Positions 4,645 to 46,214 of a stretch of DNA of 64,000 bases are shown in pieces (position 1 is the first letter of the stretch; each line of letters begins with the position of its first letter). This stretch comes from a bacterium (lineage in GTDB: Bacteria; Patescibacteriota; Minisyncoccia; UBA6257; GWB1-50-10): positions 107,910-171,909 of the forward strand of contig JAKAID010000001.1 in NCBI GenBank assembly GCA_021814545.1, written 5' to 3'. The position numbers and the translations under genes were made by a program. The notes below the pieces were generated by a model. It searched no databases. It saw only the letters and a program-made list of their open reading frames with translations, and was not told the origin of the DNA.

Positions 4645-5517
4645 CTATTCGGTATATGTTGCTTTGTGCACGTGGTGGTCGGGTACCAATGCGCCGTCTT
4701 TCAGCGTTATTATTTCATCGGCTTTTTCCGCAATGTCTTTGTCGTGGGTCACCACCACGAGCGTCTTACTTTGGGTCCGATTCAGCCTAATGAGAGAATC
4801 AAGGAGCATATTGCCGGTTTTCGAATCAAGGTTGCCCGTTGGCTCGTCGCCGAAGATGATGGCGGGGTCGTTCGCCAAGGCGCGGATAAGCGCTACGCGT
4901 TGTTGCTCGCCGCCGGAAAGTTCTGTGGGGTGGTGCATGAGCCGTTCGCCGAGGCCCATTTCAGCAAATCGCTTCCGCGTGTGTTCCATGCGTTCGCCGT
5001 GCGCGTCTCGCGCAAAAATAAGCGGTATTGTCGCGTTCTCGTAGGCATTGAGCCACGGGATAAGGTTATATTGCTGGAACACGAAGCCGAACACGGTCGA
5101 GCGCAAGGATGCCGTTTCTTCTTCGGACATCGTTGATGTGTCTACTCCGCGCACGAATACTTTCCCCTTCGTCGGTTTATCGAGAAGGCCCATGATGTTT
5201 AAGAGTGTGCTTTTCCCCGAGCCGCTCGGGCCGATAATAGAAACAAAATCGCCCTCCCAAATGTGCACATCAACGTCGTGTAAGATGCGCGTTTCAAGCC
5301 TCCCCGTGGTAAACGACTTGTACACGCCATCAAGATGAATGAACGGCGTTCCTAAATATTTTTTCGGATTTTTCTTGAAACGCTCAAGGCAGCCCTCTCC
5401 GCAGAAGTGATACTCCTTCCCTTCGTGCGCATAGGGAAGCGCCTGCGGGAATGTCTGAAGGTGCATCCCGCACACCAGGTCTATCTTTTTTGAGATGCGT
5501 TCGTGTTCAGCGTGCAT
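4645..5517 (-). CDS. ABC transporter ATP-binding protein (MacB/LolD-type) with N-terminal YHS/TRASH-like Cys motif
   Basis: N-terminal CGMH...YHFCGEGCLERF (YHS-like metal-binding signature), then Walker [10 protein letters not shown], signature LSGGEQQRVALIRAL and Walker [13 protein letters not shown]. Confidence 0.85.
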   Translation of the reverse strand: MHAEHERISKKIDLVCGMHLQTFPQALPYAHEGKEYHFCGEGCLERFKKNPKKYLGTPFIHLDGVYKSFTTGRLETRILHDVDVHIWEGDFVSIIGPSGSGKSTLLNIMGLLDKPTKGKVFVRGVDTSTMSEEETASLRSTVFGFVFQQYNLIPWLNAYENATIPLIFARDAHGERMEHTRKRFAEMGLGERLMHHPTELSGGEQQRVALIRALANDPAIIFGDEPTGNLDSKTGNMLLDSLIRLNRTQSKTLVVVTHDKDIAEKADEIITLKDGALVPDHHVHKATYTE

Positions 5518-5526
5518 TGCGCGCGG

Positions 5527-7095
5527 CTATTGATTCGCGGGCACCTGGACGATATCACCCGCATTGAGACCTTCCGTTATTTCCGTGTCCTCATTGTCCG
5601 AAATGCCGGACTTAACTTCCGTTTCTTTGGCAACGCCGTTTACCACGCGCAATACATACGTGCGCTCATCTTTTTTGTAGATGGCGACAGAGGGGATTTT
5701 TATCACATCATTTTTTGCGATGCCCGCGATAACAAGGTCGGCGCGCATTCCCGAACGCACAATGTTGCCTTCCGCCGCGGCAACCGAGGGGTCAAAAAAG
5801 ATATTCACACGGTAGAACGTATCCCCTTCTTTGATTATTTCTTTGGGGTCTATCGAAATAACTTGTCCTTCGTAGGCGGCGCCAGGGAAGGCATCGAATT
5901 TGATAGTGACCCTGCCCCCATCGTTCGGGCGTACTTTGCCGATATCGAGCTCGGATACGTCCGACTGCATTTTAAGCTCTGCCATCGAAAGCGTGATTGC
6001 CGGTTTTCCCGGGACGAATACTTCGCGCCGCTCGTAGCCGATGTCGGAAATGGTGCCATTCGCGGGTGCGTAGAGTGTTGCCTTTGCGCGGCGGTCTTCT
6101 GCTGCGCCTATCTCGCTCTTTACCTCGTCTATCTGTGCGATGGCAATGGCAATTTCTTCTGCGCGTGTTCCTGCGCGCTTTAACGTCAGCTCATTCTCCG
6201 CAATAGTAAGCGCTGCCCGCGCCGCCGCAATTTTTTCCTTCGCTGACGCGAGATTAGTTATTGCTACGCCCACGCTCAATCTGCCCGCGGACACATTTGT
6301 TCTCCATGTATCGATGGTGGTTTGTGCGACCGCCGCATTGGGCTGGAGCGTATTCAATATTTGCGTCGCCTTGTCGCTCAGGGCGCGTGCGAGCGTGAGT
6401 CCGGTATCTGCCATCGTGGTTGCCGCGGTAAGGTCACTCGAAGTCGTAAGCGATGAGATTGCAGCGTTCCATGTTTTGAGGCGCGATTCGAGCGCGAGAC
6501 GGAGTGCCTCGATGTCTATTTTGGTTTGCGGATCGCTTGGCGAGAATGATAGCTGTGGCGAGGTGTTCGGGTTGTTGAACAGCGGGTCTATCTTATTGCG
6601 TACGGTATCGTCGGCTCGCGTGAATGCGTCCGTGAGCGCCGTCACAAGGACGGTTTTCGCACTTTCGTATTCTGCCTGCGCACGTTCTACGTTCGCTTGG
6701 GAAACGCCTTCGTCCTCAAGCGTGGCGCCCGCTTTCAATTTGTTCAGATTCGCTTGGCTTTGCGTTAATACCGCATCCAACCTTGAGAGTTCGAAATCGA
6801 TATCCTTCGTTTCAAGCTTCATGAGCGCCTCGCCACGCGTGATTTTGTCGCCTTTCGCCACAAAAATGCGGTCGATGATGCCAGAGTAAGGAAATTCAAG
6901 GCTGAATTCCTTAACGGGAACCACCTCGCCCCTCACATTCACGATTTCTTGAATGGGGCCCCGTTCTGCTTTGAATGTAATGACCTCGGATACGGGAGCA
7001 GAAAAATACTTGTGGTAGACCCAATATCCCGTAAGCGCAACGCCCAAAAACACGATTACCCCGAGATACATCGTTATCCTTCTCATTGCCTTCAT
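5527..7095 (-). CDS. HlyD/MacA-family periplasmic adaptor (membrane fusion protein) with long coiled coil
   Basis: N-terminal TM, biotinyl/lipoyl-like beta segments (VVPVKEFSLEFPYSGII..GDKITRGEALMKL), extended alpha-helical hairpin, C-terminal beta-barrel; first gene of the MFP-ATPase-permease operon. Confidence 0.8.
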   Translation of the reverse strand: MKAMRRITMYLGVIVFLGVALTGYWVYHKYFSAPVSEVITFKAERGPIQEIVNVRGEVVPVKEFSLEFPYSGIIDRIFVAKGDKITRGEALMKLETKDIDFELSRLDAVLTQSQANLNKLKAGATLEDEGVSQANVERAQAEYESAKTVLVTALTDAFTRADDTVRNKIDPLFNNPNTSPQLSFSPSDPQTKIDIEALRLALESRLKTWNAAISSLTTSSDLTAATTMADTGLTLARALSDKATQILNTLQPNAAVAQTTIDTWRTNVSAGRLSVGVAITNLASAKEKIAAARAALTIAENELTLKRAGTRAEEIAIAIAQIDEVKSEIGAAEDRRAKATLYAPANGTISDIGYERREVFVPGKPAITLSMAELKMQSDVSELDIGKVRPNDGGRVTIKFDAFPGAAYEGQVISIDPKEIIKEGDTFYRVNIFFDPSVAAAEGNIVRSGMRADLVIAGIAKNDVIKIPSVAIYKKDERTYVLRVVNGVAKETEVKSGISDNEDTEITEGLNAGDIVQVPANQ

Positions 7096-43030: not shown

Positions 43031-43279
43031 TCACGCCTTCCCGTGCTTTACCAGCTCGAGCTTCCTCTCCCTCTTCCAGCTCTTGATTTCCGCCTCCCGT
43101 TTTGATGCTTTTGAGCGGTTCTTGTGCTTTTCGGCGTAGAGAAGCTTCACAACCCTATGCGCACGGGTATATTTCGCGCCCTTCTTCGCGGCATGCTCTT
43201 CAAACCTGCGCGCCACATCGGTCGTGAGCCCTGTATAGATACTCCCGCCCTCGCATTCTATAAGATAGACGAAGTACAC
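43031..43279 (-). CDS. GIY-YIG nuclease-family small protein (UPF0213/YhbQ-like)
   Basis: MYFVYLIECEGGSIYTGLTTDVARRFEEH..R.WK GIY-YIG core. Confidence 0.8.
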   Translation of the reverse strand: MYFVYLIECEGGSIYTGLTTDVARRFEEHAAKKGAKYTRAHRVVKLLYAEKHKNRSKASKREAEIKSWKRERKLELVKHGKA

Positions 43280-43389
43280 TATTTAGATTTTAACAAAACC
43301 GGTTCGGCGACAGATTGAACTCACCTTGGGCCCGGCCGCCTCAATGGTTGTTATGCCTAGACAGTGAAAGGGATCGGTGATAAAATAGT

Positions 43390-44454
43390 ATGGTGAAAAC
43401 CTCACACAAGCTCCTGCTCCAAGACGCGCGAAATTTGATTGGAATCAAGTCCGAAAGCGTGGATCTTGTTGTTACGTCTCCGCCATACCCAATGATCCAA
43501 ATGTGGGATGCGGTTTTTTCAGAATTAAATCCAGCTATTGCCGCCGCGTTGAAAGAGGAAAATGGAAATTTGGCATTTGAGCTCATGCATAAGGAGCTCG
43601 ACAGCACATGGAGAGAAATTTTCCGTGTTTTAAAAGATGGCGGCATTGCCTGCATAAATATTGGAGATTCCACCCGAACAATCGGGGGGAAATTTCAATT
43701 GTTCCCAAACCATTCGCGCATTTCAAAATCTTGTTTTGAAATTGGCTTCCATTGTCTCCCTGAAATCTTATGGCGCAAACAGACAAACGCCCCTAATAAA
43801 TTCATGGGGTCGGGAATGCTGCCCGTAGGAGCCTACGTGACTTTGGAGCATGAGTATATTTTAGTTTTGCGCAAAAATGGAAAACGCTTGTTTAATACAG
43901 AAAATGAAAAGAATCTTCGGCAAGAAAGTGCCTTTTTTTGGGAGGAGAGGAATCAATGGTTCTCCGATGTATGGGCAGACGTCAAGGGAGTTTTTCAAAA
44001 GCAGCACCAAAATGAAACCGATCGAAGAAGTGCCGCGTATCCAATAGAAATACCCTATCGTTTAATAAATATGTTTTCTTTGAAAGGAGATGTGGTTCTC
44101 GACCCGTATCTTGGCACCGGCACAACAATGGCGGCAGCCGTAATCGCAGAAAGAAATAGCATCGGGCTTGAAATTGATAAAAAATTTGCGAATGTGATCG
44201 TCAATAAAATTAAGGATGTTCCGCAAAATTATAACGGAGCTGCCAAAAAGCGACTCGAGAAGCACTTAAAGTTCGTCCAGGAGAGACAGGAAGAGAAAGG
44301 AGTCTCCGTTTTCAAATACACGAATAAAAACTACAAGCTCCCGGTAATGACTCGGCAGGAAACCGAAATCTTTTTTAGAGAGCCCACGAAAGTCAATCAA
44401 AAAAAGGAGGCTAACACTTTTGAAGTTGAATACAAAGAGTTCCGGATTAAATAG
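43390..44454 (+). CDS. DNA methyltransferase, beta-class N4-cytosine/N6-adenine family (motif IV SPPY before motif I)
   Basis: DLVVTSPPYP (motif IV) near the N-terminus and VLDPYLGTGTTMAAA (motif I) near the C-terminus; ~38% GC versus ~57% flanks. Confidence 0.85.
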   Translation: MVKTSHKLLLQDARNLIGIKSESVDLVVTSPPYPMIQMWDAVFSELNPAIAAALKEENGNLAFELMHKELDSTWREIFRVLKDGGIACINIGDSTRTIGGKFQLFPNHSRISKSCFEIGFHCLPEILWRKQTNAPNKFMGSGMLPVGAYVTLEHEYILVLRKNGKRLFNTENEKNLRQESAFFWEERNQWFSDVWADVKGVFQKQHQNETDRRSAAYPIEIPYRLINMFSLKGDVVLDPYLGTGTTMAAAVIAERNSIGLEIDKKFANVIVNKIKDVPQNYNGAAKKRLEKHLKFVQERQEEKGVSVFKYTNKNYKLPVMTRQETEIFFREPTKVNQKKEANTFEVEYKEFRIK

Positions 44455-45042
44455 CTAAGAGTCAAACTCGATAACTATTCCATCCTTTTTCTTCTCGTAA
44501 TATACGATTCTGTAGTTAATGCTTTCAGGGAGCGCCGCCTTAGTCTTATAGGTTGTGGGCTTTATGCTGACCGGATCATTACCCACATATCCGTCTATCC
44601 CCCGCGATTCTTCTTCCGGAGTCGCGAGTCTGTAGTTTTCTCCAACGTCTTCTGCAATCCTTTTTATGATCGCCTCTTGGAATTTTAACCCCGCAAATGT
44701 TTTAACAATAACGAGATCGGTAACCCACTCTCTAATCATATCTTTGTTGATCTTCCCAATAGAGTCCTTCAATTTCTCAACCATATCGGAAATTTTTTCT
44801 ATTGCCCGTTCAATCCCATCGGGTTCTTTACCCTTGTACCACTTCTCCCAATTTTTGAGCCCCCCTCCCTTAAATTCTTTAATTAGCTCACTCAGCTGCC
44901 CAACAACCGATGGACGCGTACCTTGAGCATTCTGATTGGCCAAGTTCAGGATCTGCGTTGAATATTTCGGAAAAGAGGGGCTACCGCCCGACAAGAGCTG
45001 CGCAATTTCTTTGTTCGATATTTTGATTTTCTTTAAAGCCAT
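44455..45042 (-). CDS. candidate restriction endonuclease cognate to the adjacent methyltransferase (195 aa, family unassigned)
   Basis: Convergent and abutting tail-to-tail with the MTase (stop codons adjacent), same AT-rich composition, acidic/Lys-rich. No confidently recognised catalytic motif. Confidence 0.4.
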   Translation of the reverse strand: MALKKIKISNKEIAQLLSGGSPSFPKYSTQILNLANQNAQGTRPSVVGQLSELIKEFKGGGLKNWEKWYKGKEPDGIERAIEKISDMVEKLKDSIGKINKDMIREWVTDLVIVKTFAGLKFQEAIIKRIAEDVGENYRLATPEEESRGIDGYVGNDPVSIKPTTYKTKAALPESINYRIVYYEKKKDGIVIEFDS

Positions 45043-45158
45043 GGATTCGGGTCTGCGCCAATCGCTTTGCGTGTTTTCCCCTGGTTATATTTGTAGGTAA
45101 TTCTATCCCTGATATAACTTCCTGTAAAACAGTTTTTCTCGGGCCGGATTCTAACCGA

Positions 45159-45187
45159 TTGAAAAAAAGGCTGGGATGGGGTATAAT
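45159..45187 (+). promoter_or_regulatory. sigma70-like promoter for tRNA-Gln (TTGAAA-17-TATAAT)
   Basis: Near-consensus hexamers 10 nt upstream of the tRNA 5' end. Confidence 0.55.
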
Positions 45188-45197
45188 TGCTTTTAAT

Positions 45198-45268
45198 TGC
45201 GGGATCGTCTAATGGTAGGACGCCTGACTCTGAATCAGGTAATCTTGGTTCGAATCCAGGTCCCGCAG
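45198..45268 (+). tRNA. tRNA-Gln(CUG)
   Basis: Acceptor TGCGGGA/TCCCGCA, anticodon stem CCTGA/TCAGG with loop CTCTGAA, T-loop TTCGAAT, discriminator G; no encoded CCA. Confidence 0.85.
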
Positions 45269-45373
45269 CAAAAAACGGAAGCAACCGCCTCCCAGTTTCA
45301 CTCACTCCGCTTGACCATAGGACTGAGGACTCTGAATTCACTGCTTGGCGAAATTCACCCTCCCCAACTCAGA

Positions 45374-46150
45374 ATGAAACGAAAAGAATTAGTAAATCAA
45401 ACGGAAGGAGCGTATTTACGTAAGGATTATCTTGAGGCCTTTGTAATTCAAAGTGCATATATTGAGAGTATTTTAAGAGAATTTATAAGCAATAAATTCC
45501 ATCAGCATCTCTCTGATGGTCTTTGTCAGTCTTGTGAATTTATGAACGCAGTACGAAAAAAGGTTATTGGAATTTCATTGCACGGTCTGATTGAATTGCT
45601 ATACGAGGGTAAATATATCGACTCGGGACAGAAAGCAAAAATGCAAGTATACAAAAATAGACGAAATAATATTTTGCATGAATTGCTCAAACATATTTCT
45701 AATCCAACTTTTGAAAAAGAGCTTTCTGCCGCCTACGAAGCCGGTAAGGAAGTTTTAGATGATAAAAGGCTTAAATGGATCGAGGAATTAATTGACGCAA
45801 GAGAAGAACATAATATTCTTAATGGTAAAATTATTCAGGAATCGCTTACTGATTTCTCGATAATAAATAAATTTACCGCTATGGGATATAGTCTTATTCA
45901 AAAAGAAAATCCAGCGGATAATTTACACGAATATCACGTACTCGCAGTTAATGACTGGCTTCCACTCCTCCAAAAATATCTCAAAGAGGGATGGTTTGCA
46001 TATTTTTGGAATGAAACTAAATTAAAAATTGTATTTTCAAGTAAGATATTTGAAGTTGACCCCCATCGAGAAGAAACCTGGAAGTCGGCGATAGATTATG
46101 GCTTATCAAAGCAAATCCCTATAGAAATGCTTAAGTTTCCCATGAAATAG
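45374..46150 (+). CDS. hypothetical AT-rich protein with HEPN-like R-x4-H motif (candidate abortive-infection/RNase-type defense protein)
   Basis: ~31% GC. All-helical N-terminal ~110 aa ending in YKNRRNNILHELLKH (R-N-x3-H). Start trimmed to 45374 because the longer ORF runs through tRNA-Gln. Confidence 0.5.
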   Translation: MKRKELVNQTEGAYLRKDYLEAFVIQSAYIESILREFISNKFHQHLSDGLCQSCEFMNAVRKKVIGISLHGLIELLYEGKYIDSGQKAKMQVYKNRRNNILHELLKHISNPTFEKELSAAYEAGKEVLDDKRLKWIEELIDAREEHNILNGKIIQESLTDFSIINKFTAMGYSLIQKENPADNLHEYHVLAVNDWLPLLQKYLKEGWFAYFWNETKLKIVFSSKIFEVDPHREETWKSAIDYGLSKQIPIEMLKFPMK

Positions 46151-46173
46151 CCCGATATATTGCCCAAACAAAA

Positions 46174-46196
46174 ACACGCCATTATGGCGTGTTTTT
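46174..46196. terminator. bidirectional terminator (ACACGCC-ATTA-GGCGTGT plus T5, A5 upstream)
   Basis: Seen in sequence. Confidence 0.65.
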
Positions 46197-46214
46197 CGCT
46201 GCTTATGGAGCGCC

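Follow-up and report, generated by a model that had tools for sequence, protein, structure and literature searches.

An AT-rich stretch of a bacterial genome combines an MthZI/MjaI-type restriction-modification pair with a probable divergent HEPN gene behind a native tRNA-Gln

We analysed a 64-kb stretch of bacterial DNA (the window) in which positions 43290-46200 are AT-rich and carry a DNA methyltransferase gene, a convergent gene for a 195-aa protein, a tRNA-Gln gene and a gene for a 258-aa protein. An initial annotation had described these genes as one horizontally acquired defence islet and had proposed that the 195-aa and 258-aa proteins could be an undescribed defence pairing. Our results point elsewhere: the AT-rich stretch is most probably a composite, in which a restriction-modification (R-M) pair, a native tRNA-Gln unit and the gene for the 258-aa HEPN protein have separate histories. 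There is no new defence pairing here; what the stretch holds is a known R-M system and a probable HEPN protein of new architecture, whose link to tRNA-Gln is unexplained. This view is built on what is seen directly, namely family memberships, the layout of the genes, their presence or absence in relatives, the depletion of CTAG and the adjacency to tRNA-Gln.

The evidence that divides the stretch comes from L003 (metagenome-assembled genome (MAG) WY3.bin113), the sole relative with the adjacent 382-aa protein that was obtained by scanning species-representative genomes. This protein is 81% identical between the two genomes (other flanking orthologues, 49%-85%), and gene order is kept on both sides, with DoxX, EamA and the 382-aa gene on one side and GIY-YIG, a 218-aa gene, fmt, def and an S41 peptidase on the other. 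At the syntenic position L003 has a tRNA-Gln(CUG) that is 89% identical to that of the window and is preceded by a promoter of the same spacing (TTGAAA-17-CACAAT, compared with TTGAAA-17-TATAAT in the window), and the DNA downstream of the tRNA (window 45248-45342, L003 5398-5303) is 89.6% identical. However, the distance from the start of the GIY-YIG gene to the tRNA is only 73 nt in L003 compared with 1.9 kb in the window, and the 258-aa gene is absent from L003, where other cargo is found (a gene for a ∼400-aa membrane or secreted protein and a histidine-phosphatase gene). The tRNA, its promoter and ∼95 nt of downstream sequence, all kept in L003, are native, and two independent insertions or deletions lie on either side of them. 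The tRNA-Gln(CUG), its promoter and the downstream spacer belong to neither insertion, and the single islet of the initial annotation falls apart at this point. The R-M pair was either inserted in the window lineage after the split from L003 or lost in L003.

The stretch has a GC content of 0.411, compared with 0.548 in the remainder of the window, and is the lowest-GC 2.9-kb stretch of the 64 kb, ∼4.6 standard deviations under the mean of windows of the same length (the nearest sampled one has a GC content of 0.412). The initial annotation was therefore right to single it out as AT-rich, as it is the strongest compositional outlier in the window, and every feature listed there was recovered at the same positions; its figure of 30-40% GC, however, holds only for about 45350-46100 and not for the remainder (methyltransferase gene, 0.42; gene for the 195-aa protein, 0.43; tRNA, 0.54). 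The 258-aa gene itself has a GC content of 0.34 and the 104-nt spacer downstream of the tRNA one of 0.51; the tRNA and this spacer resemble the host in composition. At third codon positions the GC content (GC3) is 0.46-0.49 in the R-M pair, compared with 0.63-0.69 in flanking host genes, and 0.28-0.30 in the 258-aa gene, compared with 0.63-0.87. The features, including the restriction endonuclease (REase) and methyltransferase (MTase) open reading frames (ORFs), are as follows.

43031-43279, minus strand: small GIY-YIG nuclease-family gene, 82 aa (Pfam GIY-YIG, 4e-19)
43357-43386, plus strand: promoter-like site of the MTase gene, TAGACA-17-TAAAAT with TG (promoter scan; putative function)
43390-44454, plus strand: MTase ORF, 354 aa (PF01555, PADLOC MTase_II)
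44455-45042, minus strand: REase ORF, 195 aa (PF09568 RE_MjaI, PADLOC REase_II)
45100-45128, minus strand: promoter-like site of the REase gene, TTTACA-17-TAGAAT (10/12 matches, consensus match only)
45159-45187, plus strand: tRNA-Gln promoter, TTGAAA-17-TATAAT (11/12 matches, sigma-70-type)
45198-45269, plus strand: tRNA-Gln(CUG) (ARAGORN; Rfam tRNA, 64.2 bits)
45270-45373, plus strand: spacer with a decayed partial tRNA-Gln copy at about 45305-45366 (alignment to eight tRNA-Gln genes)
45374-46150, plus strand: 258-aa ORF, carrying R97-N-N-I-L-H102
45374-45814, plus strand: N-terminal, probable HEPN (DUF4145-like) domain of the 258-aa protein
45815-46150, plus strand: C-terminal, predicted alpha/beta domain of ∼110 aa, plus the stop codon
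46170-46196, both strands: bidirectional intrinsic-terminator-like hairpin, a perfect 13-nt inverted repeat AAAAACACGCCAT / ATGGCGTGTTTTT

The GIY-YIG gene is host-like (GC 0.54, GC3 0.69; 85% amino acid identity to its L003 orthologue) and is a native flank that forms the left border of the R-M insertion, which upholds the native composition ascribed to it earlier. At the other end, A and T runs flank the 13-nt inverted repeat, consistent with the bidirectional terminator that had been proposed, and this terminator-like hairpin is common to the 258-aa gene and the convergent 382-aa gene. Signs of a single integration event were not found: no integrase-like ORF was present among the ORFs of the window, no direct repeats of the tRNA 3' end lay downstream of 46150 or flanked the R-M pair, no repeats bounded the AT-rich stretch, and a by-eye comparison with L003 gave no target-site duplication at the borders of the R-M insertion. 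The sole tRNA-like repeat within the stretch is the decayed copy at 45305-45366, which is also present in L003. A 20-nt repeat at 45069 and 46187 (85%) was considered as an attachment-site repeat and judged to be due to chance, and a tRNA-integrated genomic island was rejected, there being neither an integrase nor bounding repeats of the tRNA 3' end; the attachment at tRNA-Gln envisaged by the initial annotation was thus not substantiated. What stands of the horizontal acquisition concerns the R-M pair, which is foreign in its GC3 and absent from the L003 site, and not the native tRNA-Gln. The check for an ancestral origin proposed with the initial annotation gave a divided answer: the R-M pair appears not to be ancestral, whereas the adjacency of tRNA-Gln and the HEPN gene is common to the distant relative L007.

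Judged by their sequences, the 354-aa MTase and the 195-aa protein are a complete MthZI/MjaI-type type II R-M system of an already-known kind. The 195-aa protein, to which no family could be assigned initially, matches Pfam RE_MjaI (PF09568) over all 164 positions of the model, with E = 2.7e-64 and a score of 216.4 bits where the curated threshold is 22.7, and PADLOC REase_II at 1.5e-65. The MTase matches PF01555 (N6_N4_Mtase, 4.6e-43) and, almost end to end, one specific PADLOC MTase_II model (PDLC03283, 2.7e-152). It was correctly described as a beta-class enzyme, because its SPPY motif (residues 29-32) precedes the S-adenosylmethionine-binding motif DPYLGTGTT (residues 238-246), and this N-terminal position of SPPY is the beta order. 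The tail-to-tail arrangement is equally clear, as the two genes are convergent and their stop triplets abut (TAG/CTA at 44452-44457). A tblastn search against plasmids found a homologue of the REase on Methanothermobacter pFZ1 (NC_001337.1), where it is annotated as an MjaI-family restriction endonuclease and where its gene is likewise convergent, with a 12-nt overlap, with that of a 355-aa site-specific DNA methyltransferase. Identity to the pFZ1 proteins extends over essentially the full length (REase, 48%; MTase, 51% over 350 aa), and both ORFs of the window are intact and of full length by comparison with the family models and the pFZ1 proteins, with no frameshifts. M.MthZI, from the organism that carries pFZ1, is an experimentally characterised N4-methylcytosine CTAG methyltransferase of the beta subtype with an SPPY motif, to which M.MjaI and M.BfaI are homologous (PMC5867850). 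The MTase of the window is therefore predicted to be an N4-cytosine methyltransferase that makes C(m4)TAG, and the REase is predicted to cut unmethylated CTAG. This R-M system accounts fully for the methylase and the 195-aa ORF.

The tetramer composition of the window bears on this predicted specificity. With expected counts from a second-order Markov model, CTAG was observed 2 times compared with 51.8 expected in the 64 kb (observed/expected ratio (O/E) 0.04), which is the lowest value of all 256 tetramers; the second most depleted is GATC (O/E 0.26). Neither L003 nor L007 carries the R-M pair in the stretch compared, and CTAG is close to expectation in both (10 observed and 14.6 expected in 13 kb of L003; 8 and 11.7 in 12.5 kb of L007; O/E 0.68 in each). 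At the O/E of the relatives, ∼35 CTAG sites would be expected in the window, and the Poisson probability of two or fewer is ∼3e-13. Where two CTAG sites of L003 fall in coding sequence that aligns with the window, the window has CTGA and CTCG. The tetramers depleted in L003 are GATC, CCGG, CATG and GGCC, indicating that each genome has its own palindrome-avoidance signature. Two considerations count against reading the depletion as a footprint of the enzyme: many prokaryotes have few CTAG sites for unrelated reasons, and the contrast with the relatives is based on only 12-13 kb of each. With these in mind, the depletion provides indirect evidence that the REase is, or long was, active on CTAG.

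The two CTAG sites of the window lie at 2219 and 43357, and the latter (43357-43360) is the sole copy in the AT-rich stretch. It overlaps the -35 box of the promoter-like site ahead of the MTase gene; it is speculation, but this placement might allow methylation-sensitive autoregulation of the MTase. The counts for GATC were 55 observed and 213.8 expected in the window, 8 and 39.1 in L003, and 36 and 41.8 in L007. Outside the AT-rich stretch the O/E of the window is 0.21, similar to the 0.20 of L003, so both are depleted, whereas L007 is not (0.86). Inside the stretch GATC is undepleted (12 observed, 10 expected), and 10 of these 12 sites lie within the R-M genes, with one more just upstream of the methylase start. 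This pattern suggests an older GATC-specific restriction pressure common to the window and L003 lineages, and it suggests that the R-M genes came after this pressure or escape it.

The 258-aa protein is probably a new architecture in the HEPN superfamily, in which a divergent DUF4145-like domain is joined to an undescribed domain. It gave no match in Pfam, NCBIfam, PADLOC or PHROGs scans, and a word-indexed search of 5.8 billion clustered proteins returned one full-length homologue only, P0002 (47% identity, same start), whose gene lies in an AT-rich island with genes for MazG, a Schlafen-like helicase, HNH, a nucleoside deoxyribosyltransferase and Fic. An exhaustive HMMER search with the protein gave 324 matches. 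In these, its two halves match separate small proteins, residues 1-146 matching stand-alone proteins of 150-180 aa and residues 148-258 stand-alone proteins of 105-135 aa, which indicates that the 258-aa protein is a two-domain fusion.

In an alignment of 34 sequences of the N-terminal domain, R97 never varies and N98 and H102 are each kept in at least 90%, which defines the motif RNxxxH, and a helix with the sequence LEAFxxQSAYIE is conserved as well; the R, N and H of the motif are also invariant in 20 multidomain members. Among the 34 family members, 15 match DUF4145 (best, 5.1e-6), 4 match HEPN_RiboL-PSP and 2 match HepT-like models. Half of the multidomain relatives carry Sigma70_r4 and DnaA-C helix-turn-helix (HTH) domains. 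DUF4145, one of the HEPN families, has known fusions to sigma-type HTH domains and is also found with R-M systems (PMC3710099), and it is the validated catalytic RNase of the defence protein RAZR (PMC13017515). Several observations weigh against the assignment. The window protein has no match to a HEPN model, so the link is transitive, through homologues whose matches are mostly below the Pfam gathering score (two family members that were checked singly also scored under the gathering cutoff); and the only AlphaFold2 model of the N-terminal domain is poor (predicted local distance difference test (pLDDT) 30-45), although all-helical over residues 3-147, with the motif in the helix 84-107. A profile of the domain searched against PDB sequences gave chance-level matches only, and the domain had no matches in viral contigs. 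Overall, from the alignment and the matches of its homologues, the N-terminal domain is probably a divergent DUF4145-like HEPN domain, and by analogy it would most likely be a metal-independent RNase that acts as a dimer. The HEPN character suggested initially from the R-x4-H motif is thus supported at the level of the family, by the conservation of RNxxxH and by the matches of homologues to the HEPN clan.

The C-terminal domain, which has the conserved motifs GxIxEESL, RWHxY, WYAHFW and TWxxAIxYGxSxGIPxEQLDF, belongs to no Pfam family, and its profile gave chance-level matches only against PDB sequences. The AlphaFold2 model built from 37 sequences (pLDDT 97.1) predicts a ∼110-aa alpha/beta domain, not described before, whose core is ferredoxin-like. 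A Foldseek search with this model returned nothing at E <= 0.001 in PDB or among viral models (BFVD); the weak matches were to ACT, PII or CutA-type small-ligand domains. The full-length model of the protein, built from two sequences and the source of the N-terminal structure described above, had a pLDDT of 44 and was kept out of the fold search. Elsewhere the domain is fused to GNAT, MazF/PemK, ASCH, GrpB, NUDIX, SnoaL and glyoxalase domains, and where a gene encodes it alone, the neighbours are GatB and MiaA, or else HD-type nucleotidases that share an operon with it adjacent to RuBisCO form III. Our best guess, held with low confidence, is that it may be a ligand- or RNA-binding regulatory module. 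Three other identities for the protein were considered and rejected: a HEPN-MNT (HepT/MntA) system, as neither the C-terminal domain nor the neighbours match a nucleotidyltransferase family and the fold is not polymerase-beta-like; a CARF/SAVED-HEPN effector, as there is no Pfam match and the high-confidence model of the C-terminal domain has no significant PDB match; and a split toxin-antitoxin pair derived from the two domains, as no locus has stand-alone genes for the N- and C-terminal domains adjacent to each other.

The HEPN family is repeatedly found behind tRNA-Gln. Among 16 distinct loci with enough upstream sequence, drawn from diverse genomes like those of the candidate phyla radiation, 7 have a same-strand tRNA-Gln upstream of the HEPN-family gene, with a gap of 0-104 nt in five, and no other tRNA species was seen upstream of these genes among the 16 loci. 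The seven are given below with the distance to the ATG and, for three of them, the GC3 of the HEPN gene against that of flanking host genes.

Window: tRNA-Gln CUG, 104 nt; the decayed tRNA copy ends 8 nt before the ATG; GC3 0.28-0.30 against 0.63-0.87
L007: tRNA-Gln CUG, 89 nt; syntenic distant relative; GC3 0.18 against 0.71-0.80
L014: tRNA-Gln CUG, 624 nt; GIY-YIG gene in between
L010: tRNA-Gln UUG, 961 nt; one ORF between, and a possible decayed tRNA 3' end abuts the ATG
L021: tRNA-Gln UUG, 13 nt; HEPN-HTH fusion
L023/L024: tRNA-Gln UUG, 0 nt
L025: tRNA-Gln UUG, 4 nt; HEPN-HTH fusion; GC3 0.32 against 0.65

In a neighbour-joining tree of the family these members come from three different clades, and their wider context varies, with DnaX upstream in L010, L023 and L025 and GIY-YIG upstream in the window, L007 and L014. 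The HEPN domains of the window and L007 have an identity of 41%, compared with 43% for the S41 peptidase and 47% for fmt; this similarity to the divergence of housekeeping orthologues is compatible with vertical descent of the tRNA-Gln/HEPN pair. In every other locus examined (L001, L007, L010, L014, L021, L023 and L025) the HEPN family occurs without an MjaI-type pair, and it is tRNA-Gln that the family tracks, which disposes of the undescribed defence pairing. The metagenome loci are largely from 0.1-um-filtered groundwater, which fits hosts like the candidate phyla radiation (CPR)/Patescibacteria. In the literature searched, no paper ties HEPN proteins to tRNA-Gln in such a placement. The recurrent position behind tRNA-Gln is real and unexplained.

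Several further observations concern these loci. HEPN-family genes are lower in GC than their surroundings in every locus examined (L001, L004, L007-L018, L023 and L025), with a deficit of up to 28 points and GC3 down to 0.18. The P0006 gene (L026-L035, 2501-2992) shares 4 nt with the end of the gene for a Type ISP/IIG restriction-methylase of 1047 aa, and a PD-(D/E)XK gene comes next, an arrangement that points to some HEPN-family members being operon partners of R-M enzymes. In L019/L020 (3983-4479), the HEPN gene is split into two overlapping ORFs by an apparent frameshift (pseudogene or assembly error). A His_Phos_1 gene lies near the tRNA-Gln/HEPN position in three otherwise different loci (L003, 3140-3988; L023, 1693-2352; and the P0002 contig). 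Just downstream of the HEPN gene of L014 (4727-5205) are two small overlapping ORFs (76 and 81 aa) that, by eye, look like an antitoxin and a RelE/ParE-type toxin.

The tRNA-Gln itself has its own near-consensus promoter, as had been noted, which ends 10 nt ahead of the gene, and partial duplications of tRNA-Gln recur around HEPN-family loci. The decayed copy of the window is found in L003 too and is thus older than the split of the two; it is closer to the tRNA of L003 than to that of the window. The L003 copy (about 5285-5345, minus strand) has an intact anticodon arm, which reads CUA. We considered whether the decayed copy is a structured RNA and rejected this, as there is no fold signal (z = -0.4) and Rfam detects only the genuine tRNA. 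Just after the tRNA, a terminator-like hairpin with a T run lies on the minus strand of the window (45277-45292); its sequence is conserved in L003, and no minus-strand gene ends at it. L003 has an extra insert of ∼156 nt after its tRNA-Gln (5371-5553, minus strand), with a terminator hairpin followed by a second tRNA 3' end, which looks like the scar of an integration event. In L007, a ∼21-nt copy of the tRNA-Gln 5' end is found upstream of the GIY-YIG gene, which is thus bracketed by tRNA 5'-end repeats (5517-5540 and 5838-5860) and appears as if inserted beside or into the tRNA gene. A small GIY-YIG gene adjoins tRNA-Gln, in either orientation, in four genomes (window, 43031-43279; L003, 5702-5953; L007, 5592-5831; L014, 3653-3955), although that of L007 is of a different subgroup (the window protein gives no tblastn match). 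In L021, a second D-arm and anticodon-arm segment (GTAGGACAGCGGCCTTTGAAGC) at about 130-170, upstream of tRNA-Gln, represents a partial duplication of that gene.

Could the whole of 43290-46200 nevertheless be one horizontally acquired defence islet, in which the 195-aa and 258-aa proteins form a new coupled pair? The two parts are adjacent and both AT-rich, DUF4145-type HEPN genes sometimes occur in R-M operons (PMC3710099), and the family member P0006 has an overlap with a Type ISP/IIG R-M gene at the 3' end of the latter. However, the parts are separated by a native tRNA-Gln that has its own promoter and conserved flanks, the 195-aa protein is already partnered by the MTase, as in pFZ1, the HEPN family lacks the MjaI-type pair in seven other loci, the GC3 of the two parts differs (0.46-0.49 compared with 0.28-0.30), and neither an integrase nor bounding repeats are present, so this view is largely refuted and extremely improbable. 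It is very unlikely, too, that the R-M pair is a decaying or inactive remnant, with an orphan methylase and a dead nuclease: its genes are compositionally foreign, but both ORFs are intact, full length and free of frameshifts, each gene has a promoter-like site, and the purge of CTAG from the host is extreme and specific to this genome. We also regard as rather unlikely that the 258-aa protein is not a defence toxin but a lineage-specific housekeeping factor of ultra-small bacteria, active in RNA, tRNA or nucleotide metabolism, with a HEPN-like domain that would process or bind RNA and a C-terminal domain that would bind a nucleotide. Stand-alone genes of the N-terminal domain do sit amid ordinary genes (HIT-HEPN-rhodanese; DnaX-tRNA-HEPN-M23 peptidase; beside a cold-shock gene), those of the C-terminal domain by GatB and MiaA or with HD-type nucleotidases near RuBisCO form III, the fusion partners include GNAT, NUDIX, ASCH, GrpB and glyoxalase, PADLOC does not match the 258-aa protein, and no obvious antitoxin partner gene is adjacent. 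Yet members occur in defence-like settings (P0006 with a Type ISP R-M gene and PDDEXK; the P0002 island), the C-terminal domain is fused to MazF toxins in two proteins, one family member is frameshifted (L019/L020), and the absence of the gene from the close relative L003 indicates that it is dispensable.

The link to tRNA-Gln admits two further readings. It is possible, if on balance doubtful, that the 258-aa gene is mobile defence or abortive-infection cargo swapped at a tRNA-Gln hot spot, the linkage reflecting the site of integration and not function. This would fit the GC3 of HEPN genes (0.18-0.42, compared with 0.65-0.80 in every GC-rich host), the unrelated cargo at the same spot in the close relative L003, the partial tRNA-Gln copies (downstream in the window and L003, at the 3' end in L003, at the 5' end in L007 and upstream in L021) and the AT-rich island around the sole full-length homologue, P0002, with its MazG, Schlafen-like helicase, HNH and Fic genes. 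On the other hand, no integrase or recombinase was seen in any locus, in three divergent loci the ATG follows the tRNA at 0-13 nt, which looks more like a fixed dicistronic junction than an attachment-site scar, the 41% identity of the HEPN domains of the window and L007 is in line with the 43-47% of housekeeping orthologues, DnaX-tRNA-Gln-HEPN synteny is common across clades, and there were no viral-contig matches. More tentatively still, and unlikely in our estimate, tRNA-Gln and the HEPN gene may be an old, conserved two-gene transcription unit of ultra-small (CPR/Patescibacteria-like) bacteria and a tRNA-coupled RNase module of an undescribed kind, in which the C-terminal domain would be a switch, the HEPN mRNA would be near-leaderless and tRNA-Gln would be the RNase target, a regulator or an RNA antitoxin. 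Against a long-standing functional unit, 9 of the 16 loci with enough upstream DNA lack a tRNA-Gln, so the linkage is not obligatory, and the extremely low GC3 of the HEPN gene in GC-rich hosts fits poorly with simple long-term vertical inheritance. The observations fit either an ancestral co-transcribed unit whose AT-richness is maintained by selection or repeated exchange of the gene at a hot spot.

Returning to the composite that we prefer, we can infer from it what the enzymes do, how the 258-aa gene is transcribed and what part the C-terminal domain plays. The beta-class SPPY MTase would place an N4-methyl group on the cytosine of CTAG in host DNA, and the convergently transcribed MjaI-family REase would cut unmethylated CTAG in incoming DNA. 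The R-M module would have entered the gap that separates the GIY-YIG gene from the tRNA-Gln promoter once the L003 lineage had branched off, or have been lost in L003, and the pair would have been resident and active long enough to purge CTAG from the host sequence. The 258-aa gene would most likely be transcribed from the tRNA promoter as a tRNA-mRNA precursor; because the ATG lies 0-13 nt behind the tRNA in relatives, processing of the tRNA 3' end would there free a nearly leaderless mRNA. A point against this step is that it is based on a simple consensus scan, which predicted no promoter in 45270-45373 and no convincing plus-strand terminator between the tRNA and the 258-aa ORF. The weakest step is the last, in which the C-terminal domain would most likely be a ligand- or RNA-binding regulatory module.

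The significance of the two parts differs. The R-M pair is routine: in this bacterial system of the MthZI/MjaI type, specificity appears readable from a genome-specific purge of CTAG. The 258-aa gene is of more use, as it defines a divergent family of probable HEPN proteins and a new small domain whose fold is predicted with high confidence, neither of which has a database family, and the HEPN family lies repeatedly 0-100 nt behind tRNA-Gln and stays AT-rich even where the host is GC-rich. Should the linkage be functional, it would offer a testable example of a nuclease that depends on one particular tRNA for its expression or action, in organisms not yet culturable.

Among known systems, the ligand-activated sensor-HEPN RNases of the CARF-HEPN type (Csm6/Csx1) and the HEPN-MNT (HepT/MntA) toxin-antitoxin pairs resemble the 258-aa protein, as predicted here, in joining a HEPN RNase domain to a second, probably regulatory domain, but the window locus has no CRISPR or cyclic-oligonucleotide-signalling (CBASS-type) context. 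The R-M pair is much closer to its counterparts of the MthZI/MjaI/BfaI type. The REase is of the same family (PF09568) and 48% identical to the pFZ1 enzyme, the predicted N4-cytosine MTase of the beta class with SPPY is 51% identical and almost the same length (354 compared with 355 aa), the genes are convergent and tail to tail (overlapping in pFZ1, abutting in the window), and the host of the window is depleted in CTAG, as expected of CTAG specificity. It differs in being chromosomal in a CPR-like bacterial MAG, whereas the pFZ1 pair is on an archaeal plasmid, in its placement between a GIY-YIG gene and a tRNA promoter, and in that its specificity and cleavage position are deduced from its relatives. 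With the DUF4145-like HEPN RNases (RAZR, PMC13017515; the DUF4145 group of Anantharaman et al. 2013, PMC3710099), the 258-aa protein shares a conserved R-x4-H in a domain that is helical by a low-confidence prediction, members of its family match the DUF4145 model, and both the fusion to sigma-type HTH domains and the occasional coupling to R-M systems have already been noted for that group (PMC3710099). Unlike these RNases, the family of the window is too divergent for Pfam thresholds, and a partner of the zinc-finger, REase or helicase kind is missing; the window protein instead has as partner a C-terminal domain of no described family, and many members of the family lie directly 3' of tRNA-Gln.

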